Assembly (NCBI GenBank): GCA_041640035.1
Contig: JBEQBC010000001.1
Coordinates: 204,111-268,110 of the forward strand
Length of the DNA: 64,000 nt
Source of the DNA: Candidatus Nanohaloarchaea archaeon
GTDB lineage: Archaea > Nanohalarchaeota > Nanosalinia > Nanosalinales > Nanosalinaceae
Reading direction: 5' to 3'
The translations under genes were made by a program, and so were the position numbers. Each line of letters starts with the position of its first letter. Position 1 is the stretch's first letter. Under the pieces are notes generated by a model. The model did no database searches, was not told the DNA's origin, and saw only the letters and a program-made list of their open reading frames with translations. Below are positions 14,173 to 48,294 of this stretch, one piece after another.

Positions 14173-15903
14173 TCAAACTACTCTCGGACTAAGTTCCTCC
14201 TGAACTTCCGGCGAACCTGAAAGGCGTTCCTCTACATATTCTGCGAAGCCATCCGCGTACTCCGGAGCCATTGCTTCCGCAGTCGCCATCACATCATCAT
14301 CGTAGACCTCTCTGAATACTTCTCCCCAGACCTCTTCATCATCGTAGTCTGGAACTGTTTCGGGATTCGATGGGTCGATACCTTGCTGTTCCATTGCTTC
14401 ACGGATCTTATCGCCGTGAGGCATTATCGCAGCTTTCGCGAGTGCTACGCTTGGTTCGTCTTCATAGTTCTGACGGGAGTTTCTGTACTCGAATCCTCCG
14501 GTCTGGAATTTGGGTCTTACATCGTGGTGTAGTCCGCCGATGTGTTGTTCCGAAAAGTTGCCCTTATGATACTCCTTGAGCTCGTCTTCGCTCATACCTG
14601 TTAGATCGACCGTTCCACGGACTCGTTTCAATCCGTCCTCTCCATCTGTGACTATCTTGGTGAAATCTACTTCGCCGTCCTCGATATACTCTCTCGGCGT
14701 CTTTGGATTTTCAGGATCGACTGTCAGCATAGCCACACTTTCATAGTCAAAGTCTTCAGGTACATCGTCCTTGAACTCGACATGTTCTCTGTCAGGTTTG
14801 GCTATCCAAGCCATGTGGTGGCCGGTCATGTACTCATCTACCATTCCTTGGAAGGCATCTCCGTCACTGTCCATAATCGAATCGATGACATTCCATGGTG
14901 TACCGGTTCTATCAAGCGCTGCCTCATCTACATCGGCATCATCGAGGAAGTGCTGACCATATGCACTGTTCTCCCAGTAGTCCTGGTTAACACCGGTTTC
15001 CGGCTGTCCCTCATCTTCCTCGCTGTAAACATTAGAGGTCAATACATCGAAAGCTCCTTCAAACACTATCCGGTAAGCCATCTCTTCAGACATGCGTTCG
15101 TCTACATCGATTTCTCCGTCATCGCTCCAGAGACCGGATGTGAGCTGTGTGGATCCTCCGAACATGTTCTCCATTATCTGAGGTCCGAAGATCGTACTGA
15201 TGTAATCGGCACAGTACTCCACAGAGCTGAAATGATCGTAAAACTCCTCTGAGAACTCTACAGCTTCATCTCGTCCGTATTCGTCTCCTAAGCCACGCTT
15301 GACAACTTCACGGTCACCGATCTCGTCAGGTGTCCTCTCCGGTTCACGGAATTGACGGGTTAAACCTTGATCTGCGAATTCAAGGTCGGGGTGGTTCTCC
15401 TGTATGTATTTTCTCGTTCCTTCTCTCAGGCTTTTCAGTACATCAAGAAGTGTTCCGAAGTTTCCGGAGCCGTCTATCTGGAAGGCACCTGAGTCTATCT
15501 CGATCTGAGGTCCGATCTCCCAGTCTGCTGCTGGAGCACCGATAACCTGATCTGACTCCTGACTTTCTTCAACCTCTATCTCTGCTGGTCTATCCTCGAA
15601 ATGACCTTTTTCCTTAACGCCCTTGAGTTCGAAGCTGAATTCTTCTCCGTAGCCGTCTACATTCTCTTCGAGTTCTTCCTCGATGCTCTCCCAAAGTCCT
15701 TCGCTGATTATATCCTGATAATCTGGGGCTAACGGCATAACACCGTCTTCTTCTCTGACTATCGGGTTCTCGCTCTCCACGCCCATGCCGGTTGGCCCGA
15801 CATTTTCCTCATAGTTGTCCTTGAATTCCTCTGTGAACTCTTCTACGATTTCATCGTAGTCAAGTTCTGCGGCAGCGGTGGAGGTTTCGCCTGTTGCTGA
15901 CAT
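14173..15903 (-). CDS. Divergent glutamate-cysteine ligase (GCS2)-like carboxylate-amine ligase
   Basis: GMGVESE, EIGPQIEI, GGSTQLT, HHDVRPK..GGFEYRN motifs. Confidence 0.62.
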   Translation of the reverse strand: MSATGETSTAAAELDYDEIVEEFTEEFKDNYEENVGPTGMGVESENPIVREEDGVMPLAPDYQDIISEGLWESIEEELEENVDGYGEEFSFELKGVKEKGHFEDRPAEIEVEESQESDQVIGAPAADWEIGPQIEIDSGAFQIDGSGNFGTLLDVLKSLREGTRKYIQENHPDLEFADQGLTRQFREPERTPDEIGDREVVKRGLGDEYGRDEAVEFSEEFYDHFSSVEYCADYISTIFGPQIMENMFGGSTQLTSGLWSDDGEIDVDERMSEEMAYRIVFEGAFDVLTSNVYSEEDEGQPETGVNQDYWENSAYGQHFLDDADVDEAALDRTGTPWNVIDSIMDSDGDAFQGMVDEYMTGHHMAWIAKPDREHVEFKDDVPEDFDYESVAMLTVDPENPKTPREYIEDGEVDFTKIVTDGEDGLKRVRGTVDLTGMSEDELKEYHKGNFSEQHIGGLHHDVRPKFQTGGFEYRNSRQNYEDEPSVALAKAAIMPHGDKIREAMEQQGIDPSNPETVPDYDDEEVWGEVFREVYDDDVMATAEAMAPEYADGFAEYVEERLSGSPEVQEELSPRVV

Positions 15904-15951
15904 CAGGAAGACCTCCGAGAAACAGTTGAATTATTGATTTTAGAAATAGTT

Positions 15952-16017
15952 TTAGAACTGTCCGTAGATGTGGATCTCGTCCTGCAGAACGCGTCCACCT
16001 GTGATTGCTACTGACAT
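15952..16017 (-). CDS. Putative leader peptide MSVAITGGRVLQDEIHIYGQF (21 aa)
   Basis: ATG 25 nt after TTTAAAA (16043-16049); shares GGTGGACGCGTTCTG (GGRVL) with the leader at 33874. Confidence 0.6.
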   Translation of the reverse strand: MSVAITGGRVLQDEIHIYGQF

Positions 16018-16223
16018 ACCATGCCTGTTAGTAACTTAACGGTTTTAAATGTTGTTCAGTTCCACATCTTTTCCAGAGAACCTGCGAGCCATCTATATAA
16101 ATCTAGGTCGAGTATACTTTGGTAGAGCGAGCACGGTCTGTCTAAGCGGATCGTTGTTAGAGAACTGCTCTGAATTTAAGTTTCTGATCTATTATACAAA
16201 CAAAAAATGGAGGATAAAGGATA

Positions 16224-16880
16224 ATGGTTGAACAGATGCAACACCGTCAGCAGAAGGAAATGGAAGAATTCGAAACCGGTACTACAACACTAGGACTTAC
16301 AACAGAAGAAGGAGTCATCCTGGCAGCAGACAAAAGAGCTGCACTGGGAGGACGACTGGTAAGCAACAAGCACGCCAAGAAAGTCTTTGAACTGGATGAC
16401 CAGCTAGGACTTACGATCGCAGGAAGCGTAGGAGACGCACAGAAGATTGTCCGCGTAATGAGAAGCCAGCTGAACCTGCACAAGCTAGAGACCAAGGAGC
16501 TTTCGGTCAAAGGAGCAGGAACACTACTCTCTAACATCCTGCACGGCAACAAGATGATGCCGTTTATGAACCAGTTCATCCTTGGAGGAGTAAGAGAAGA
16601 CGAAGGCGGAATTGTTTACAGCCTTGACCCTGCAGGAGGACTAATGGGACATGAAGACTACACAGCTACGGGTTCCGGAAGCCAGATGGCATTCGGAGTA
16701 CTCGAAGACAACTACGAACATGGTATGGATCACGAGGAAGCTAAGGAAGTAGCTGCCAACGCAATCGAGGCAGCGATGGAAAGAGATACAGCTTCCGGAA
16801 ACGGTATCATGGTCGCTGAGATCACTGAGGACGGTTATGATGTAGTCAGTGATCAGGAAGTTGAATCCAAGCTGAAGTGA
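16224..16880 (+). CDS. psmB: Proteasome beta subunit
   Basis: Propeptide-G/TTT site, AADKRA, GSGS, RDTASG. Confidence 0.96.
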   Translation: MVEQMQHRQQKEMEEFETGTTTLGLTTEEGVILAADKRAALGGRLVSNKHAKKVFELDDQLGLTIAGSVGDAQKIVRVMRSQLNLHKLETKELSVKGAGTLLSNILHGNKMMPFMNQFILGGVREDEGGIVYSLDPAGGLMGHEDYTATGSGSQMAFGVLEDNYEHGMDHEEAKEVAANAIEAAMERDTASGNGIMVAEITEDGYDVVSDQEVESKLK

Positions 16881-17004: not shown

Positions 17005-18879
17005 ATGGAAGAACTTGATGACATTAAAGACATGCTGCCGGATAACGCACAGGTTGACGAACTTCGATACGAAGCTTCAGATATCGTAGTCTACACTGGT
17101 AGCAAAGAATTTTTCTTGAATAACTCAGATGTTGTAAAAGAAATTGTATCCAAAATCAAGAAGCGAGTGGAGATCAGACCTTCATCCAAACTATTCATGG
17201 ATCCAGAACGAGCAGAAGAGAAAGTTCATGAGGTAGTTAGTGATGATGCAGGTCTTGAAGAAGTTATTTTCCAGCCTTCACTCGGTAAAATGATACTAAG
17301 AGCAGAAAAACCTGGAAAGGTAATTGGGAACAACGGCAGAGGACTTGACGAACTAAGAGAGAAAACGATGTGGAGTCCACAGGTCGAAAGAGTTCCTGCA
17401 ATCCAGTCAAATGTAGTTGACCGAGCAAGAGAGCTTACAGTAGAGGATCCAGAGTTCAGGAAAGACTTCCTCCACGATGTAGGTCAGAAGATCAGACTGG
17501 ACAAATCAGTAGGAGATGAATGGATAAGAATCTCCTCACTAGGAGGATTCCGGCAGGTAGGGCGCTCATGCGTACTACTTCAGACAGAGGAATCAAATGT
17601 ACTGATGGACTGTGGAATCGATCCAAGCGCTGAACCAGGCAGTAGGGAGAACTTCCCGTACCTGAACGCACCTGAACTGAACCTTCAGGAACTTGATGCA
17701 GTGATTCTATCACACGCACATATGGACCATGTCGGAATGATACCGTACCTGTACAAGATGGGGTATGATGGCCCGCTTTACTGTACAGAACCGACCAGAG
17801 ATCTGATGATTATGCTTACACTGGATTACATCGGCCTGGCGCATTCAGAGAACAACAAGGCGCCTTATGACTCCAGTGCGATTAAAAAGGCGGTCAAGCG
17901 TACAATTACTCCTGATTATGGAGAGGTTACTGATATCACTCCGGATATGCGTTTGACTTTGAGAAACTCAGGTCATATCATCGGAAGTGCATTGACCCAT
18001 ATCCATGTTGGAGAAGGACTGCACAACATCCTGTACACCGGAGATTACAACTATGATACTACAGAGATGCTGAGTCCTGCATCCACCAACTTCCAGAGAG
18101 TGGAGACCATGATCACAGAATCCACTTACGGTGGACGCGACGACGAGCAGACTCCGCGTGAGGAAGCGAACAAGAAGTTCCTCTCCAAGGTTAAACAGAC
18201 ATTGAACAAGGGAGGAAAGGTTATCGTTCCGGCGTTCGCTGTCGGTAGAAGCCAGGAAGTACTTGGTCTTCTCGCAGATGAGATGGACCGAAGCTACTTC
18301 GACTACAATGTATACATAGACGGTATGATCAACGATGTCAACGCGTTGCATACCGCTTACCCTGAGTTCCTTTCCGATAAAGTACAGAACAAGGTGCACC
18401 GAGAGGACTCACCTTTCCTCAAGGAGAACATCGAGGTCATAGGAAGCCACCGGGAGCGTGAACAAGTGAAGGAAGACGATGGATGCGTTATTCTGACAAC
18501 TTCCGGAAGCCTCACAGGAGGCCCCGTTCTCTCATACCTGAAAGAGTTCGCCGACGACCCAGACAACGCACTGGTCTTCGTAGGATACCAGTTCGAAGGA
18601 TCACTAGGACGAAAGATTCAGGAAGGAGCCGACCATGTAGAGATCGACGGCGAGTCAGTAGAAGTCAATCTTGAAACAGAAACCGTATCAGGTTTCTCAG
18701 CACATAGCGACAGACAGCAGATAATCAACTTTGCGAAGAACCTGCGTTCCAGTCCAAGAAGAGTGTTCACTAACCACGGGGAGGAGAAGAAATGCTTCAG
18801 CCTAGCTTCCACACTTCATAAAGTGCTGAATATCGATACATCCGCACCTCAGAACCTGGAAGTCAACAGGCTGGAATAA
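17005..18879 (+). CDS. fttA: aCPSF1/FttA beta-CASP ribonuclease with KH domains
   Basis: N-terminal KH, LGGFRQVGRS, SHAHMDH, GHIIGSA, FSAHSD; conserved position after psmB. Confidence 0.95.
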   Translation: MEELDDIKDMLPDNAQVDELRYEASDIVVYTGSKEFFLNNSDVVKEIVSKIKKRVEIRPSSKLFMDPERAEEKVHEVVSDDAGLEEVIFQPSLGKMILRAEKPGKVIGNNGRGLDELREKTMWSPQVERVPAIQSNVVDRARELTVEDPEFRKDFLHDVGQKIRLDKSVGDEWIRISSLGGFRQVGRSCVLLQTEESNVLMDCGIDPSAEPGSRENFPYLNAPELNLQELDAVILSHAHMDHVGMIPYLYKMGYDGPLYCTEPTRDLMIMLTLDYIGLAHSENNKAPYDSSAIKKAVKRTITPDYGEVTDITPDMRLTLRNSGHIIGSALTHIHVGEGLHNILYTGDYNYDTTEMLSPASTNFQRVETMITESTYGGRDDEQTPREEANKKFLSKVKQTLNKGGKVIVPAFAVGRSQEVLGLLADEMDRSYFDYNVYIDGMINDVNALHTAYPEFLSDKVQNKVHREDSPFLKENIEVIGSHREREQVKEDDGCVILTTSGSLTGGPVLSYLKEFADDPDNALVFVGYQFEGSLGRKIQEGADHVEIDGESVEVNLETETVSGFSAHSDRQQIINFAKNLRSSPRRVFTNHGEEKKCFSLASTLHKVLNIDTSAPQNLEVNRLE

Positions 18880-27783: not shown

Positions 27784-27910
27784 GGTCCATTAGCTCAGGG
27801 GTTAGAGCACCGTCCTTATAAGGACCTCACACAGAAAAAACCTTACTTGATCCTGTGTGTTGCCTCCATAAGAGAGGCGGCGGTCCCGGGTTCGAATCCC
27901 GGATGGACCA
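27784..27910 (+). tRNA. tRNA-Ile(UAU) with 54-nt intron (27821-27874) at 37/38
   Basis: Acceptor GGTCCAT/ATGGACC+A; anticodon stem CCGTC/GGCGG; anticodon TAT 27817-27819; T-arm CCGGG-TTCGAAT-CCCGG; CTTA/TAAG BHB-like helix. Confidence 0.88.
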
Positions 27911-33763: not shown

Positions 33764-33873
33764 AATAAATTTCTTTGCTCTCGCAATCTTATAACTTGAT
33801 TCGATTTAATATGAAGAAGTTGGCCGGAAGAGGGAAAACGATTATAATATATTAGTTCAATTATCTAATTACA

Positions 33874-33924
33874 ATGATTTCCGTCCTTAGAACTCAGGGT
33901 GGACGCGTTCTGGAGCATCAATAA
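33874..33924 (+). CDS. Putative leader peptide MISVLRTQGGRVLEHQ (16 aa)
   Basis: ATG 23 nt after ATTATAATAT; homologous to the leader at 15952-16017. Confidence 0.55.
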   Translation: MISVLRTQGGRVLEHQ

Positions 33925-33984
33925 TAGCTTCCAGAATAAAATAATTTCTAAAATCTCTAACTATCCGTTCGCAGGTGTTTTCCT

Positions 33985-34665
33985 GTGACTCAGGTGCTTT
34001 CTGACTGGGAGGTAAGCGTTGTTGACGCAACCTTGGAATGGCCTCGTTACAGCAACCGGTTCAATGAGCTTTTGGGCGATGATATCAAGAAGTACAAGGC
34101 GATGAAACATGAGTTTCCGGAAGATCCGGAAGTAGTAATTATCTCAGGCTCAACCTCCGGAATCTACGAGGACGAGGAATGGATCGACGCATTAGTGGAG
34201 AAGACTCGGGAATACATCGAGAACGATGTACCCGTGCTTGGCCTCTGCTTCGGTCATCAGGTGATTGCCAAGGCGATGGGTGCTGAAGTCGTTCAGATGG
34301 ATGAGTATGAAATCGGTTACCGGCCTGTAGAGTTGGGAGAAAGCGAGATATTTGAAGGACTGGACTCTGTGGAGTACCCGTTCAACACGCATCAGGATAA
34401 AGTGATTGACTTACCGGACGACTTGGAGACTATCGCTGAAACTGATGTATCCGTTCAGGGCATTCAGCATAGTAAGAAGAAGGTTTATGGTGTTCAGTTC
34501 CATCCGGAGTTGACGCCGCCCATCAAGGAGAAAGCGATCCGGACGAAGGATATGCCTGAGGCTAAGAAAGAGAGACTTTTGAGAGAAGTGAATGATGCGA
34601 ACTTTGATCGTGCGAAACGGGTTCTCAGGATATTCGAGAACTTTCAGAACATTTTAGTCAATTAA
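33985..34665 (+). CDS. Class I glutamine amidotransferase-like hydrolase
   Basis: LGLCFGHQ and GVQFHPE triad motifs; no synthase partner adjacent. Confidence 0.9.
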   Translation: MTQVLSDWEVSVVDATLEWPRYSNRFNELLGDDIKKYKAMKHEFPEDPEVVIISGSTSGIYEDEEWIDALVEKTREYIENDVPVLGLCFGHQVIAKAMGAEVVQMDEYEIGYRPVELGESEIFEGLDSVEYPFNTHQDKVIDLPDDLETIAETDVSVQGIQHSKKKVYGVQFHPELTPPIKEKAIRTKDMPEAKKERLLREVNDANFDRAKRVLRIFENFQNILVN

Positions 34666-48156: not shown

Positions 48157-48294
48157 GGGAGTGTAGCTCAATCTGGGAGAGCGACCGCCTCCAGAACAAT
48201 TTACTGGAGGAATGAGAACCGGTTTGAACTGGTTCGATGATTAACTCTTCGTGGAGTAAGCGGTAGGTTGCATGTTCAAATCATGCCACTCCCA
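48157..48294 (+). tRNA. tRNA-Trp(CCA) with 64-nt intron (48195-48258)
   Basis: GGGAGTG/CACTCCC+A acceptor; ACCGC/GCGGT stem; CCA 48191-48193; BHB helix CTCC/GGAG. Confidence 0.9.

Follow-up and report, generated by a model that had tools for sequence, protein, structure and literature searches.

In the Escherichia coli gene prfB, which encodes release factor RF2, a Shine-Dalgarno (SD)-like element lies about 3 nt before a P-site NUU, a slow A site triggers a +1 slip, and the rate of shifting mirrors the availability of the factor decoding the A site. In attenuation of the trpL/leuL type, the speed of the ribosome at leader codons sets expression, and the short leader open reading frames (ORFs) of trpL, leuL, hisL and pheL hold codons cognate to the genes they regulate. 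The T-box riboswitches of Firmicutes are modular leaders with an exchangeable specifier codon, found before many aminoacyl-tRNA synthetase (aaRS) and amino-acid genes. To our knowledge, how archaea adjust aaRS levels to amino-acid supply is essentially unknown, and nothing equivalent to T-boxes or attenuators has been described there. Here we analyze a family of leaders met in a 64,000-nt stretch of DNA from Candidatus Nanohaloarchaea archaeon (the window; G000:C1:204111-268110, contig JBEQBC010000001.1 of assembly GCA_041640035.1). One copy, leader A, precedes a gene for a 576-amino acid (aa) protein, P0001, and another, leader B, a gene for a glutamine amidotransferase (GATase)-like protein, P0002.

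The family combines the logic of T-boxes and attenuators with a geometry like that of prfB, and it is a member of none of these groups. Like prfB, the leaders have an SD-like GGUGG, a fixed spacer of 3-4 nt, a P-site NUU and a proposed slow A site. The A-site codon, however, is not a stop codon but an exchangeable sense codon (Leu, Pro, Ser, His, Tyr or Trp); in most cases the ORF read after the shift would serve as a short connector to another gene, to which it is coupled, whereas in prfB it is the regulated protein itself; and the message is archaeal and apparently leaderless, with GUU instead of CUU in the P site. With the attenuators the leaders share a short ORF whose codons are cognate to the regulated genes. 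They differ in having one sensor codon in a fixed Gly-Gly-x-Val context rather than a run of codons, in offering no terminator/antiterminator alternative that we could find in the short forms, and in an output, onto aaRS genes in an archaeon, that apparently passes through a second frame and a stop/start overlap. The T-box is the functional analogue, although its RNA is untranslated and binds uncharged tRNA directly. At gathering scores, Rfam found only three tRNAs in the whole window and no T-box; at E up to 10, leader A had no match and leader B four chance matches (E 1.2-9.9).

Two other comparisons are useful. Overlaps of the AUGA or UGAUG kind with an SD just upstream are familiar from translational coupling in operons, and the stop of the leaders' +1 frame overlaps the main start in just this way; here, in contrast, the upstream cistron would be reachable only from another frame, at the motif. 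Arrest leaders such as SecM and TnaC have a long conserved peptide, whereas here as few as six residues precede the sensor codon and x varies among Arg, Cys, Tyr, His and Asp. An earlier note on the window, made from its sequence, had suggested an arrest peptide, next to an RNA motif or an operator, as the common element. The suggestion holds in so far as the small ORF looks translated and would make a leader peptide, but that peptide is too short and variable for arrest of the SecM/TnaC type.

Shifts of +1 at "hungry" codons, whose aminoacyl-tRNA is limiting in the A site, come from Gallant's work in E. coli and from the CUU-AGG-C site of yeast Ty1, and the passages of a 2016 review that deal with them leave open whether such shifting has a natural use; its passages on archaea give only few −1 and +1 frameshift cases, of other kinds (PMC5009743). 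Those hungry-codon shifts are incidental or serve the expression of an element, whereas the leader would be a dedicated sensor. Searches of the literature on nanohaloarchaeal frameshifting, archaeal aaRS leader peptides and hungry codons (2016 on), at the level of abstracts, found no description of such a leader.

A leader core with an exchangeable sensor codon

The two window leaders share the 15-mer GGTGGACGCGTTCTG. Allowing up to two mismatches, the window has 2 matches where 0.04 would be expected (none of 100 shuffles reached 2); with up to one mismatch, the whole archaeal genome (G000; 0.98 Mb in 24 contigs) has exactly 2. A 19-mer block further downstream, the region of what we call motif 2, likewise has only two copies in the genome. 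The earlier note had described the same succession in both leaders: a TATA-like box, an ATG, the 15-mer in frame in a small ORF, the 19-mer, and a block AGGT..TTCCTG before the main start. All of these lie where it had placed them, with about 24-25 nt from TATA to ATG. The last block consists of the SD region together with the closing codons of an ORF in the +1 frame, the stop of which overlaps the main start. The TATA-to-ATG spacing of leader A recurs in orthologous and paralogous leaders, and a box so close to the small-ORF ATG implies a leaderless transcript.

Orthologues of both window genes in other genera are preceded by the same layout: TATA, ATG, in-frame GG[RC]VL, stop, motif 2, SD and start. 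The two leaders are thus homologous cis-regulatory elements, as had been proposed. The further suggestion of a recent duplication is excluded: outside the shared blocks the leaders align poorly, which speaks against a fresh copy, and each is conserved with its own gene across genera.

The pattern RGGTGGAYGCGTTCT, allowing one mismatch, occurs in 44 of the 50 genomes of the nanohaloarchaeal family, with 1-5 copies each; the reversed pattern gave 2 matches in total. Relaxed patterns, followed by uniform filters that asked for an ATG in frame, an A/T-rich box upstream at 16-38 nt and a stop in frame 0 no further than 100 nt away, yielded 78 distinct leader records. Their common core is GGT GGN nnn GTT YNN, that is, a mini-ORF M…G-G-x-V-X, and the shortest leaders read M-K-G-G-x-V-X…, with six residues before the sensor codon X. 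Among the accepted leaders the distance from ATG to motif runs from 3 to about 100 nt and is in every case divisible by 3. In public metagenome and genome contigs, pattern scans met the leader layout only in DNA of nanohaloarchaeal type. The short-ORF layout was present in 6 of the 39 metagenome loci (L071, L077, L084, L086, L096, L105) and in 10 of the 32 loci from genome contigs; most of the remaining loci have no in-frame ATG or lie inside long frames. The loose 15-mer is frequent in the order's other families, but the 20 regions and seven loci inspected there (L028, L029, L031-L034, L036) either lie in long ORFs or lack the leader layout.

The codon that follows GTT varies with the gene behind the leader. 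CCN (Pro) stands before bacterial-type ProRS genes (in G000 itself, 2.5 kb to the left of the window, and in G001, G021, G022 and G067), before archaeal-type ProRS genes (G004, G023) and before the gene for pyrroline-5-carboxylate reductase (ProC; G015); the two types of ProRS are mutually unrelated. TCT (Ser) precedes SerRS in 7 of 7 leaders, one of them on contig 16 of G000, and the two proteins given to NCBIfam were both above cut-off. CAC (His) precedes HisRS (G007, G010), TAT (Tyr) TyrRS (G054), and CTG-TTG (Leu-Leu) a 2-isopropylmalate-synthase-like (LeuA-like) gene (G053). For all 17 aaRS genes found behind leaders, X is the cognate codon. The A-site codons used are CUG, CUA, CCN, UCU, CAC, UAY and UGG, all of them sense codons. 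In G000, four genes stand behind leaders: serS, proS, the 576-aa gene and the GATase gene.

Two of these leaders lie outside the window. The Pro-type leader before proS (G000:C1:201441-201650) has two tiers, ATGAACGGTGGCTGTGTCCC and then MNYSTKGGRVPLTTN up to its stop, and the +1 stop of tier 2 lies in a GTGA on the ProRS start. The Ser-type leader before serS is of the minimal form, MKGGDVS… (G000:C16:8714-8735, minus strand).

Many long leaders (e.g., L171, L145, L169 and L222) have an upstream half-repeat, GGTGGAYGTTTTAT (G-G-R/C-F-I/V), in the same small ORF, and their +1 frame is usually open across half-repeat and motif; the half-repeat may provide a second site of shifting, beside Ile or Val codons. 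Three GC-rich metagenome or bacterial contigs, unrelated to one another (L076, L101, L131), have a conserved stretch of about 60 nt with ATGGGTGGATGCGTTCTC, reading MGGCVLCQAGRSLSEIRS up to a stop, which probably represents a conserved element without relation to the leader or else a gene's antisense strand. A ribosomally made precursor (RiPP) or CAAX-like peptide was considered and dropped: the Cys is interchangeable with Arg, Tyr, His and Asp, and it does not lie at the C-terminus. A palindromic operator was also rejected, ACGCGT being the sole palindrome and broken by a C/T variant.

The +1 frame and a candidate hungry-codon shift

Comparison of the leaders shows two kinds of constraint on the motif. 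In frame 0, G-G-x-V is kept through synonymous changes (GGA/GGC/GGG and CGC/CGT/CGG), with x free to be R, C, Y, H or D, from which the small ORF looks to be translated. GGT and GTT, on the other hand, never vary across the leaders, which points to a constraint at the nucleotide level on GGUG and GUU; a constraint of this sort had been anticipated from identity at synonymous sites in the two window copies.

After GTT the +1 frame stays open. The median open run is 31 codons in +1, against 6 in frame 0 and 14 in frame −1, and the +1 run exceeds the −1 run in 70 of 77 leaders. In the short leaders the +1 frame also ends at the gene: 28 of 36 have its stop no more than 6 nt from a start codon of the main ORF, compared with 0 of 36 when frame 0 is taken and 2 of 35 with frame −1. 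The usual overlaps of stop and start are ATGA, GTGA, TGATG and TAATG. Of the other short leaders, two have the +1 frame fused to the gene and six have the stop 8-14 nt from a start. Fused genes include those of the Trp-type GNAT-like proteins and of the GATase in G015. In G067 the +1 frame remains open for 300 nt and ends in an ATGA on proS.

The +1 frame is closed between the small-ORF ATG and the motif in 55 of the 78 leaders, and beyond the motif, 33 of the 78 lack any ATG, GTG or TTG in this frame. At the Trp-type loci the alignment of the conserved protein begins at residue 3 past the shift site, and the sequence up to +163 nt offers no start codon. With the frame closed upstream and start codons absent downstream, ribosomes would have to enter +1 at the motif. 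In the tandem leaders of proS in G000 and of proC in G015, the +1 frame of the first mini-leader is frame 0 of the second. This arrangement fits a shift as well as an ordinary start at GUG within the motif, but by either account the sequences appear to show the +1 frame in use.

The geometry is that of an SD-assisted slip. GGUGG(A), a fixed spacer of 3-4 nt and GUU-Y follow one another without an indel in any leader, as at a prfB-type site. X begins with C or T in every leader; the three matches with G or A after GTT all lack the short-leader layout. The 16S tail of relatives ends …GGAUCACCUCC (the assembly of G000 holds no 16S gene of its own), and the duplex of the motif with that tail comes to −7.3 to −8.6 kcal/mol, against −8.6 for the GATase gene's own SD. 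The genome has a tRNA-Val(GAC), whose G34 is able to read a following C or U.

The motif, the agreement of X with the gene, the open +1 frame and the overlap of stop and start are seen directly in the compared sequences; from them we infer the frameshift itself and the direction of control. Transcription would start about 25 nt after the TATA box, at or next to the AUG, and the small ORF, judging by the spacing, would be read leaderless. The ribosome would read M…Gly-Gly-x-Val until GUU is in the P site and X in the A site. If the cognate aminoacyl-tRNA is plentiful, the ribosome would keep frame 0 and stop a few codons on, far from the main gene, whose SD and start would go unused. If it is scarce, the A site would stand empty, and two drivers could bring about the slip: the pairing of GGUGG, 3-4 nt upstream, with the 16S rRNA tail, and the move of peptidyl-tRNA-Val(GAC) from GUU to UUY. 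The shifted ribosome would read the open +1 frame to the stop overlapping the main start (UGAUG or GUGA); termination there would open the start region and allow reinitiation on the main ORF by translational coupling. For GATase, the SD and GUG start are predicted to be paired in a local hairpin, and the gene would then depend on the upstream ribosome. Shortage of Leu-tRNA would raise the 576-aa protein and GATase, and shortage of Pro or Ser would raise ProRS or SerRS. The direction is homeostatic: an empty A site gives more shifting, more translation up to the stop/start overlap and hence more aaRS.

Several observations weigh against such a shift, or limit what it explains. The invariant GGUG contains a GUG in the +1 frame, a possible ordinary start codon, and the open +1 frame alone is therefore no proof of a shift; the x codon of the minimal leaders also often makes a +1 AUG or GUG, as it does in all seven Ser-type leaders. 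After the slip, tRNA-Val(GAC) on UUY would keep two of its three pairs. The match of codon and gene has gaps as well. Three Pro-type loci (L173, L175, L230) have no assignable gene, His-type and Tyr-type leaders also precede MazE/AbrB-like proteins, and Trp-type leaders stand before a GNAT-like family instead of TrpRS. Leu-type leaders, the window's two among them, mostly have behind them proteins without a known leucine link: GATase, the 576-aa family, a 623-aa family, a 390-aa protein and dozens of small acidic orphans. Moreover, the leaders are kin. About six gene families give independent matches, and the counts overstate independence because of this common descent. Among 24 sequencing runs listed, none was recorded as RNA. 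Finally, the scheme leaves the roles of motif 2 and of a covarying hairpin without explanation, and simple coupling does not cover the long-form leaders; both are described below.

Weighing all this, our preferred reading, to which we give an even chance, is that the leader is a hungry-codon +1 frameshift site feeding translational coupling. The wider claim of a modular, reprogrammable switch, in which a leaderless G-G-x-V and a sensor codon turn shortage of the cognate aminoacyl-tRNA into a +1 shift onto the regulated start, we advance tentatively, as one a little more apt to fail than to hold.

Hairpins, long forms and other readings

Motif 2 (TTCAAAAYC or TCTAAAAYC) lies 34-46 nt before the main start in most short leaders and occurs in all three phases of the +1 frame. 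Not being locked to any reading frame, it is a nucleotide-level element, and it may be an internal TATA-like promoter or an aid to reinitiation. In the GATase leaders, a hairpin whose 5′ arm begins at CUG is followed by U-rich sequence. It was spotted by eye and tested as a named structure; across 12 leaders, 72.6% of cells were paired, compared with 15-46% when the structure was slid along, and 13 cells were changed on both sides, a result reached in none of 500 shuffles. RNAalifold on the same 12 leaders gave only a weak, invariant mini-helix inside the motif. The leaders of P0001 and proS do not share the hairpin.

In the long-form leaders (L142-L150, L158-L171, L215-L226) the main start is 180-320 nt away. 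The +1 ORF ends in 5-12 Leu/Ile codons (…LLLLLL and stop), and this run makes up the 5′ arm of a hairpin looped by TAAAAA; a U-rich stretch follows. Then come an SD and a third small ORF, rich in CA (e.g., MTTHNNTQ…), which ends on the main start some 100-155 nt further on. These additions look like an added attenuator layer. Small acidic orphans behind Leu-type long leaders (e.g., L038, L143, L148, L170, L189) often have a (V/T)DGG motif; none of them has a Pfam match.

The open +1 frame can be read without any shift. If the +1 ORF began at the GUG of GGUGG, or at an AUG or GUG made with the x codon, two overlapping upstream ORFs would precede each gene: one coupled to it and the other, the leaderless frame-0 ORF, a separate sensor whose ribosome, when stalled at X, covers the +1 start. 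GGT always places GUG in the +1 frame, and its invariance would be accounted for as well as by a frameshift. The C/T variation of the motif is synonymous (GAY) in +1, several x codons do yield a +1 AUG or GUG, the Trp-type proteins could simply begin M-D-A/V-F-G, and the long-form +1 ORFs, with Leu runs before a hairpin, resemble classical leader peptides. The difficulty is the direction of control. The GUG, 8 nt upstream, is hidden under a ribosome stalled at X, so that starvation would bring down the +1 ORF together with the coupled cognate aaRS, the wrong direction for homeostasis. The GUG also has no SD at a usable distance, whereas the main ORFs have theirs; the +1 residues after it vary freely (D/G/A, A/V/G/T), whereas G-G-x-V is kept synonymously in frame 0; and the +1 ORFs lack cognate codons. 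We hold this arrangement to be unlikely, if a serious competitor. Simple attenuation, in which a pause at a hungry X alters folding or termination at the U-rich motif 2 and the +1 frame goes unread, draws on the same match of sensor codon and gene, which is classical attenuation logic, on the covarying hairpin and U-rich sequence of the GATase leaders, and on the hairpin and U run of the long forms. It gives no account of the 28 of 36 short leaders whose open +1 frame ends on the main start, of the fused genes and +1-linked tandem tiers, or of an X that always starts with C or T. No alternative pairing of terminator and antiterminator was found, and the P0001 and proS leaders are without the hairpin. 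We regard attenuation by stalling alone as improbable.

An untranslated binding site for a protein or ligand, be it a DNA operator or a riboswitch-like RNA with the small ORF incidental, would suit the invariant synonymous sites in GGT and GTT and the nucleotide-level motif 2. However, the motif comes with an ATG in frame and a stop nearby, the codon behind GTT follows the gene's amino acid, and the motif is neither palindromic nor matched in Rfam; we give this possibility almost no credence. The earlier note itself favored an element peculiar to the two window genes, co-regulating a split gamma-glutamyl ligase and hydrolase of the PuuA/PuuD kind. Both genes do have Leu-type leaders, and both are present in G008 and G024. 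The label of class I GATase stands for P0002, which matches PF00117 (8.1e-28, 97.8 bits against a cut-off of 22.8) and PF07722, Peptidase_C26 (1e-07, 32.4 bits against 20.5), with no NCBIfam model or equivalog at its cut-off. The label "GCS-like" for P0001 found no support in its sequence matches. P0001 has no match in Pfam, NCBIfam or the PDB, by sequence or by profile, to GCS, GS or any other family, and none to PF04107 or PF14395 taken directly, even at E up to 10. Its 19 close homologues, unnamed or "hypothetical", are all from nanohaloarchaeal sources, and its profile met only 7 clusters among 1.84 billion representatives, all P0001-like. The AlphaFold model is poor (pLDDT 48.8), and the fold search gave nothing above Z 5.5, with PafA at Z 4.6, E. 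coli GshA at 3.8 and a YbdK-like chain at 3.3 among helical noise. Language-model (atlas) neighbours, at a score of 0.86, include GCS2 (14% of members) and COOH-NH2_lig (76%), as a lead only. A ligase of this kind is thus unproven for P0001, and the fold rows and neighbour scores are weak leads toward carboxylate-amine ligases.

The two genes are also not inherited as a pair. G001 keeps the GATase gene and has an unrelated 623-aa protein at the P0001 site, and in G002 (a genome 74% complete) P0001 is present and GATase was not found. The leader also stands before many unrelated genes: those for ProRS, SerRS, HisRS, TyrRS, ProC, LeuA, MazE/AbrB-like and GNAT-like proteins and many orphan acidic proteins. 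This is the outcome that the note itself had named as counting against its reading. An element specific to the pair is therefore very unlikely, and that reading is replaced by one of a family-wide, codon-specific leader. The two window genes are linked by a common sensor codon, CUG (Leu), rather than by any demonstrated biochemical partnership. One natural contrast between an SD role and a GUG start for the motif would be leaders with GGAGGA; such variants occur in other families, but none of those inspected has the leader layout. The GGTAGA variants L156, L212 and L213 are not leaders either.

The window leaders, their neighbors and wider meaning

The features of the two leaders, with the tRNA genes and the neighbors of leader A, are collected in Table 1. 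The proteins of the window are very acidic, and relatives in public records are named Nanohaloarchaea. Leader A is flanked, on the other strand, by genes for a proteasome subunit and for a termination factor of FttA/aCPSF1 type with KH, beta-CASP and RMMBL domains. Two of the window's tRNA genes are far over the 71-position model in length and presumably carry introns.

Table 1. Positions in the window of the two leaders and of neighboring features.
Feature	Positions	Strand	Remarks
Leader A TATA-like box TTTAAAA	16043..16049	-	about 25 nt before small-ORF ATG; from sequence
Leader A small ORF, frame 0, MSVAITGGRVLQDEIHIYGQF and stop	15952..16017	-	conserved in G002, G024, G008 and metagenome locus L077
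Leader A core motif GGT GGA CGC GTT CTG	15985..15999	-	
Leader A SD-like GGUGGA in core	15994..15999	-	
Leader A proposed P-site GUU	15988..15990	-	
Leader A proposed sensor codon CUG (Leu)	15985..15987	-	
Leader A open +1 frame	15903..15986	-	27 codons from sensor codon
Leader A overlap TGATG	15901..15905	-	+1 stop TGA 15905-15903, main ATG 15903-15901
Leader A motif 2 TCTAAAATC	15936..15944	-	about 40 nt before main start
Main ORF A SD GGAGGT	15911..15916	-	duplex with 16S tail −14.7 kcal/mol
Main ORF A (P0001)	14173..15903	-	576-aa acidic orphan protein; restricted to Nanohaloarchaeota
Leader B TATA-like box TTATAATA	33842..33849	+	24 nt before small-ORF ATG
Leader B small ORF, frame 0, MISVLRTQGGRVLEHQ and stop	33874..33924	+	from sequence and comparison of orthologues
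Leader B core motif GGT GGA CGC GTT CTG	33898..33912	+	proposed P-site GUU 33907-33909, sensor CUG 33910-33912
Leader B hairpin	33908..33936	+	5′ arm begins at motif end; frame-0 stop in loop; from fold and covariation
Leader B open +1 frame	33911..33988	+	25 codons
Leader B overlap GTGA	33985..33988	+	+1 stop TGA 33986-33988, main GTG 33985-33987
Leader B motif 2 TCTAAAATC	33947..33955	+	38 nt before main start
Leader B predicted local hairpin UCGCAGG/CCUGUGA	33969..33988	+	holds SD AGGUG and GUG start; single-sequence prediction
Main ORF B (P0002)	33985..34665	+	226 aa; stand-alone class I GATase-like; PF00117, PF07722
Proteasome subunit gene	16224..16880	+	
FttA/aCPSF1-type termination factor gene	17005..18879	+	
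tRNA gene	27784..27910	+	127 nt
tRNA gene	48157..48294	+	138 nt

The 623-aa protein of G001 (L068:3359-5230, minus strand) is syntenic with P0001. It is acidic, has a Leu-type leader as in the window and the same neighbors (the proteasome subunit and a 633-aa ORF), and has no detectable similarity to P0001; its relatives in G061 and G023 carry the leader too. The MazE/AbrB-like genes behind leaders encode small proteins of MazE/AbrB fold (PF04014) in the +1 frame, at the His-type loci L207 and L209, which have a two-tier build like that of proS in G000, and at the Tyr-type locus L192. It is possible that these are starvation-controlled regulators or antitoxins. The proteins of the Trp-type loci (L193, L196, L198, L245) are GNAT-like (PF00583 at 6.9e-06 for one member) and have no start codon of their own; their conserved N-terminus follows immediately on the GGxV-UGG motif, in the +1 frame.

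These nano-archaea are host-dependent and must rely on the import of amino acids. In a whole family of them the leader stands before the genes for ProRS, SerRS, HisRS, TyrRS, ProC and LeuA. A translated leader whose sensor codon is exchangeable and which stands in front of archaeal aaRS genes is new on the rival readings too. Should the frameshift prove true, it would be a new use of recoding and would answer whether hungry-codon shifting is purposeful: the leaders would form the first natural regulon to sense through frameshifting at hungry sense codons, and, for Archaea, the first system to control aaRS genes in an amino-acid-specific way; in function it would match the bacterial T-box regulon, with ribosome slippage in place of a tRNA-binding RNA. 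The specificity of a 30-nt element should then change with a single codon, and the module could find use as a small, programmable sensor of amino acids. Responses would be steeper with tandem tiers, and Leu-type copies would provide a general starvation signal for symbiont-specific proteins. The leader flags dozens of orphan acidic proteins, the 576-aa protein and the GATase as starvation-controlled, and would offer a first handle on their role in symbiosis.

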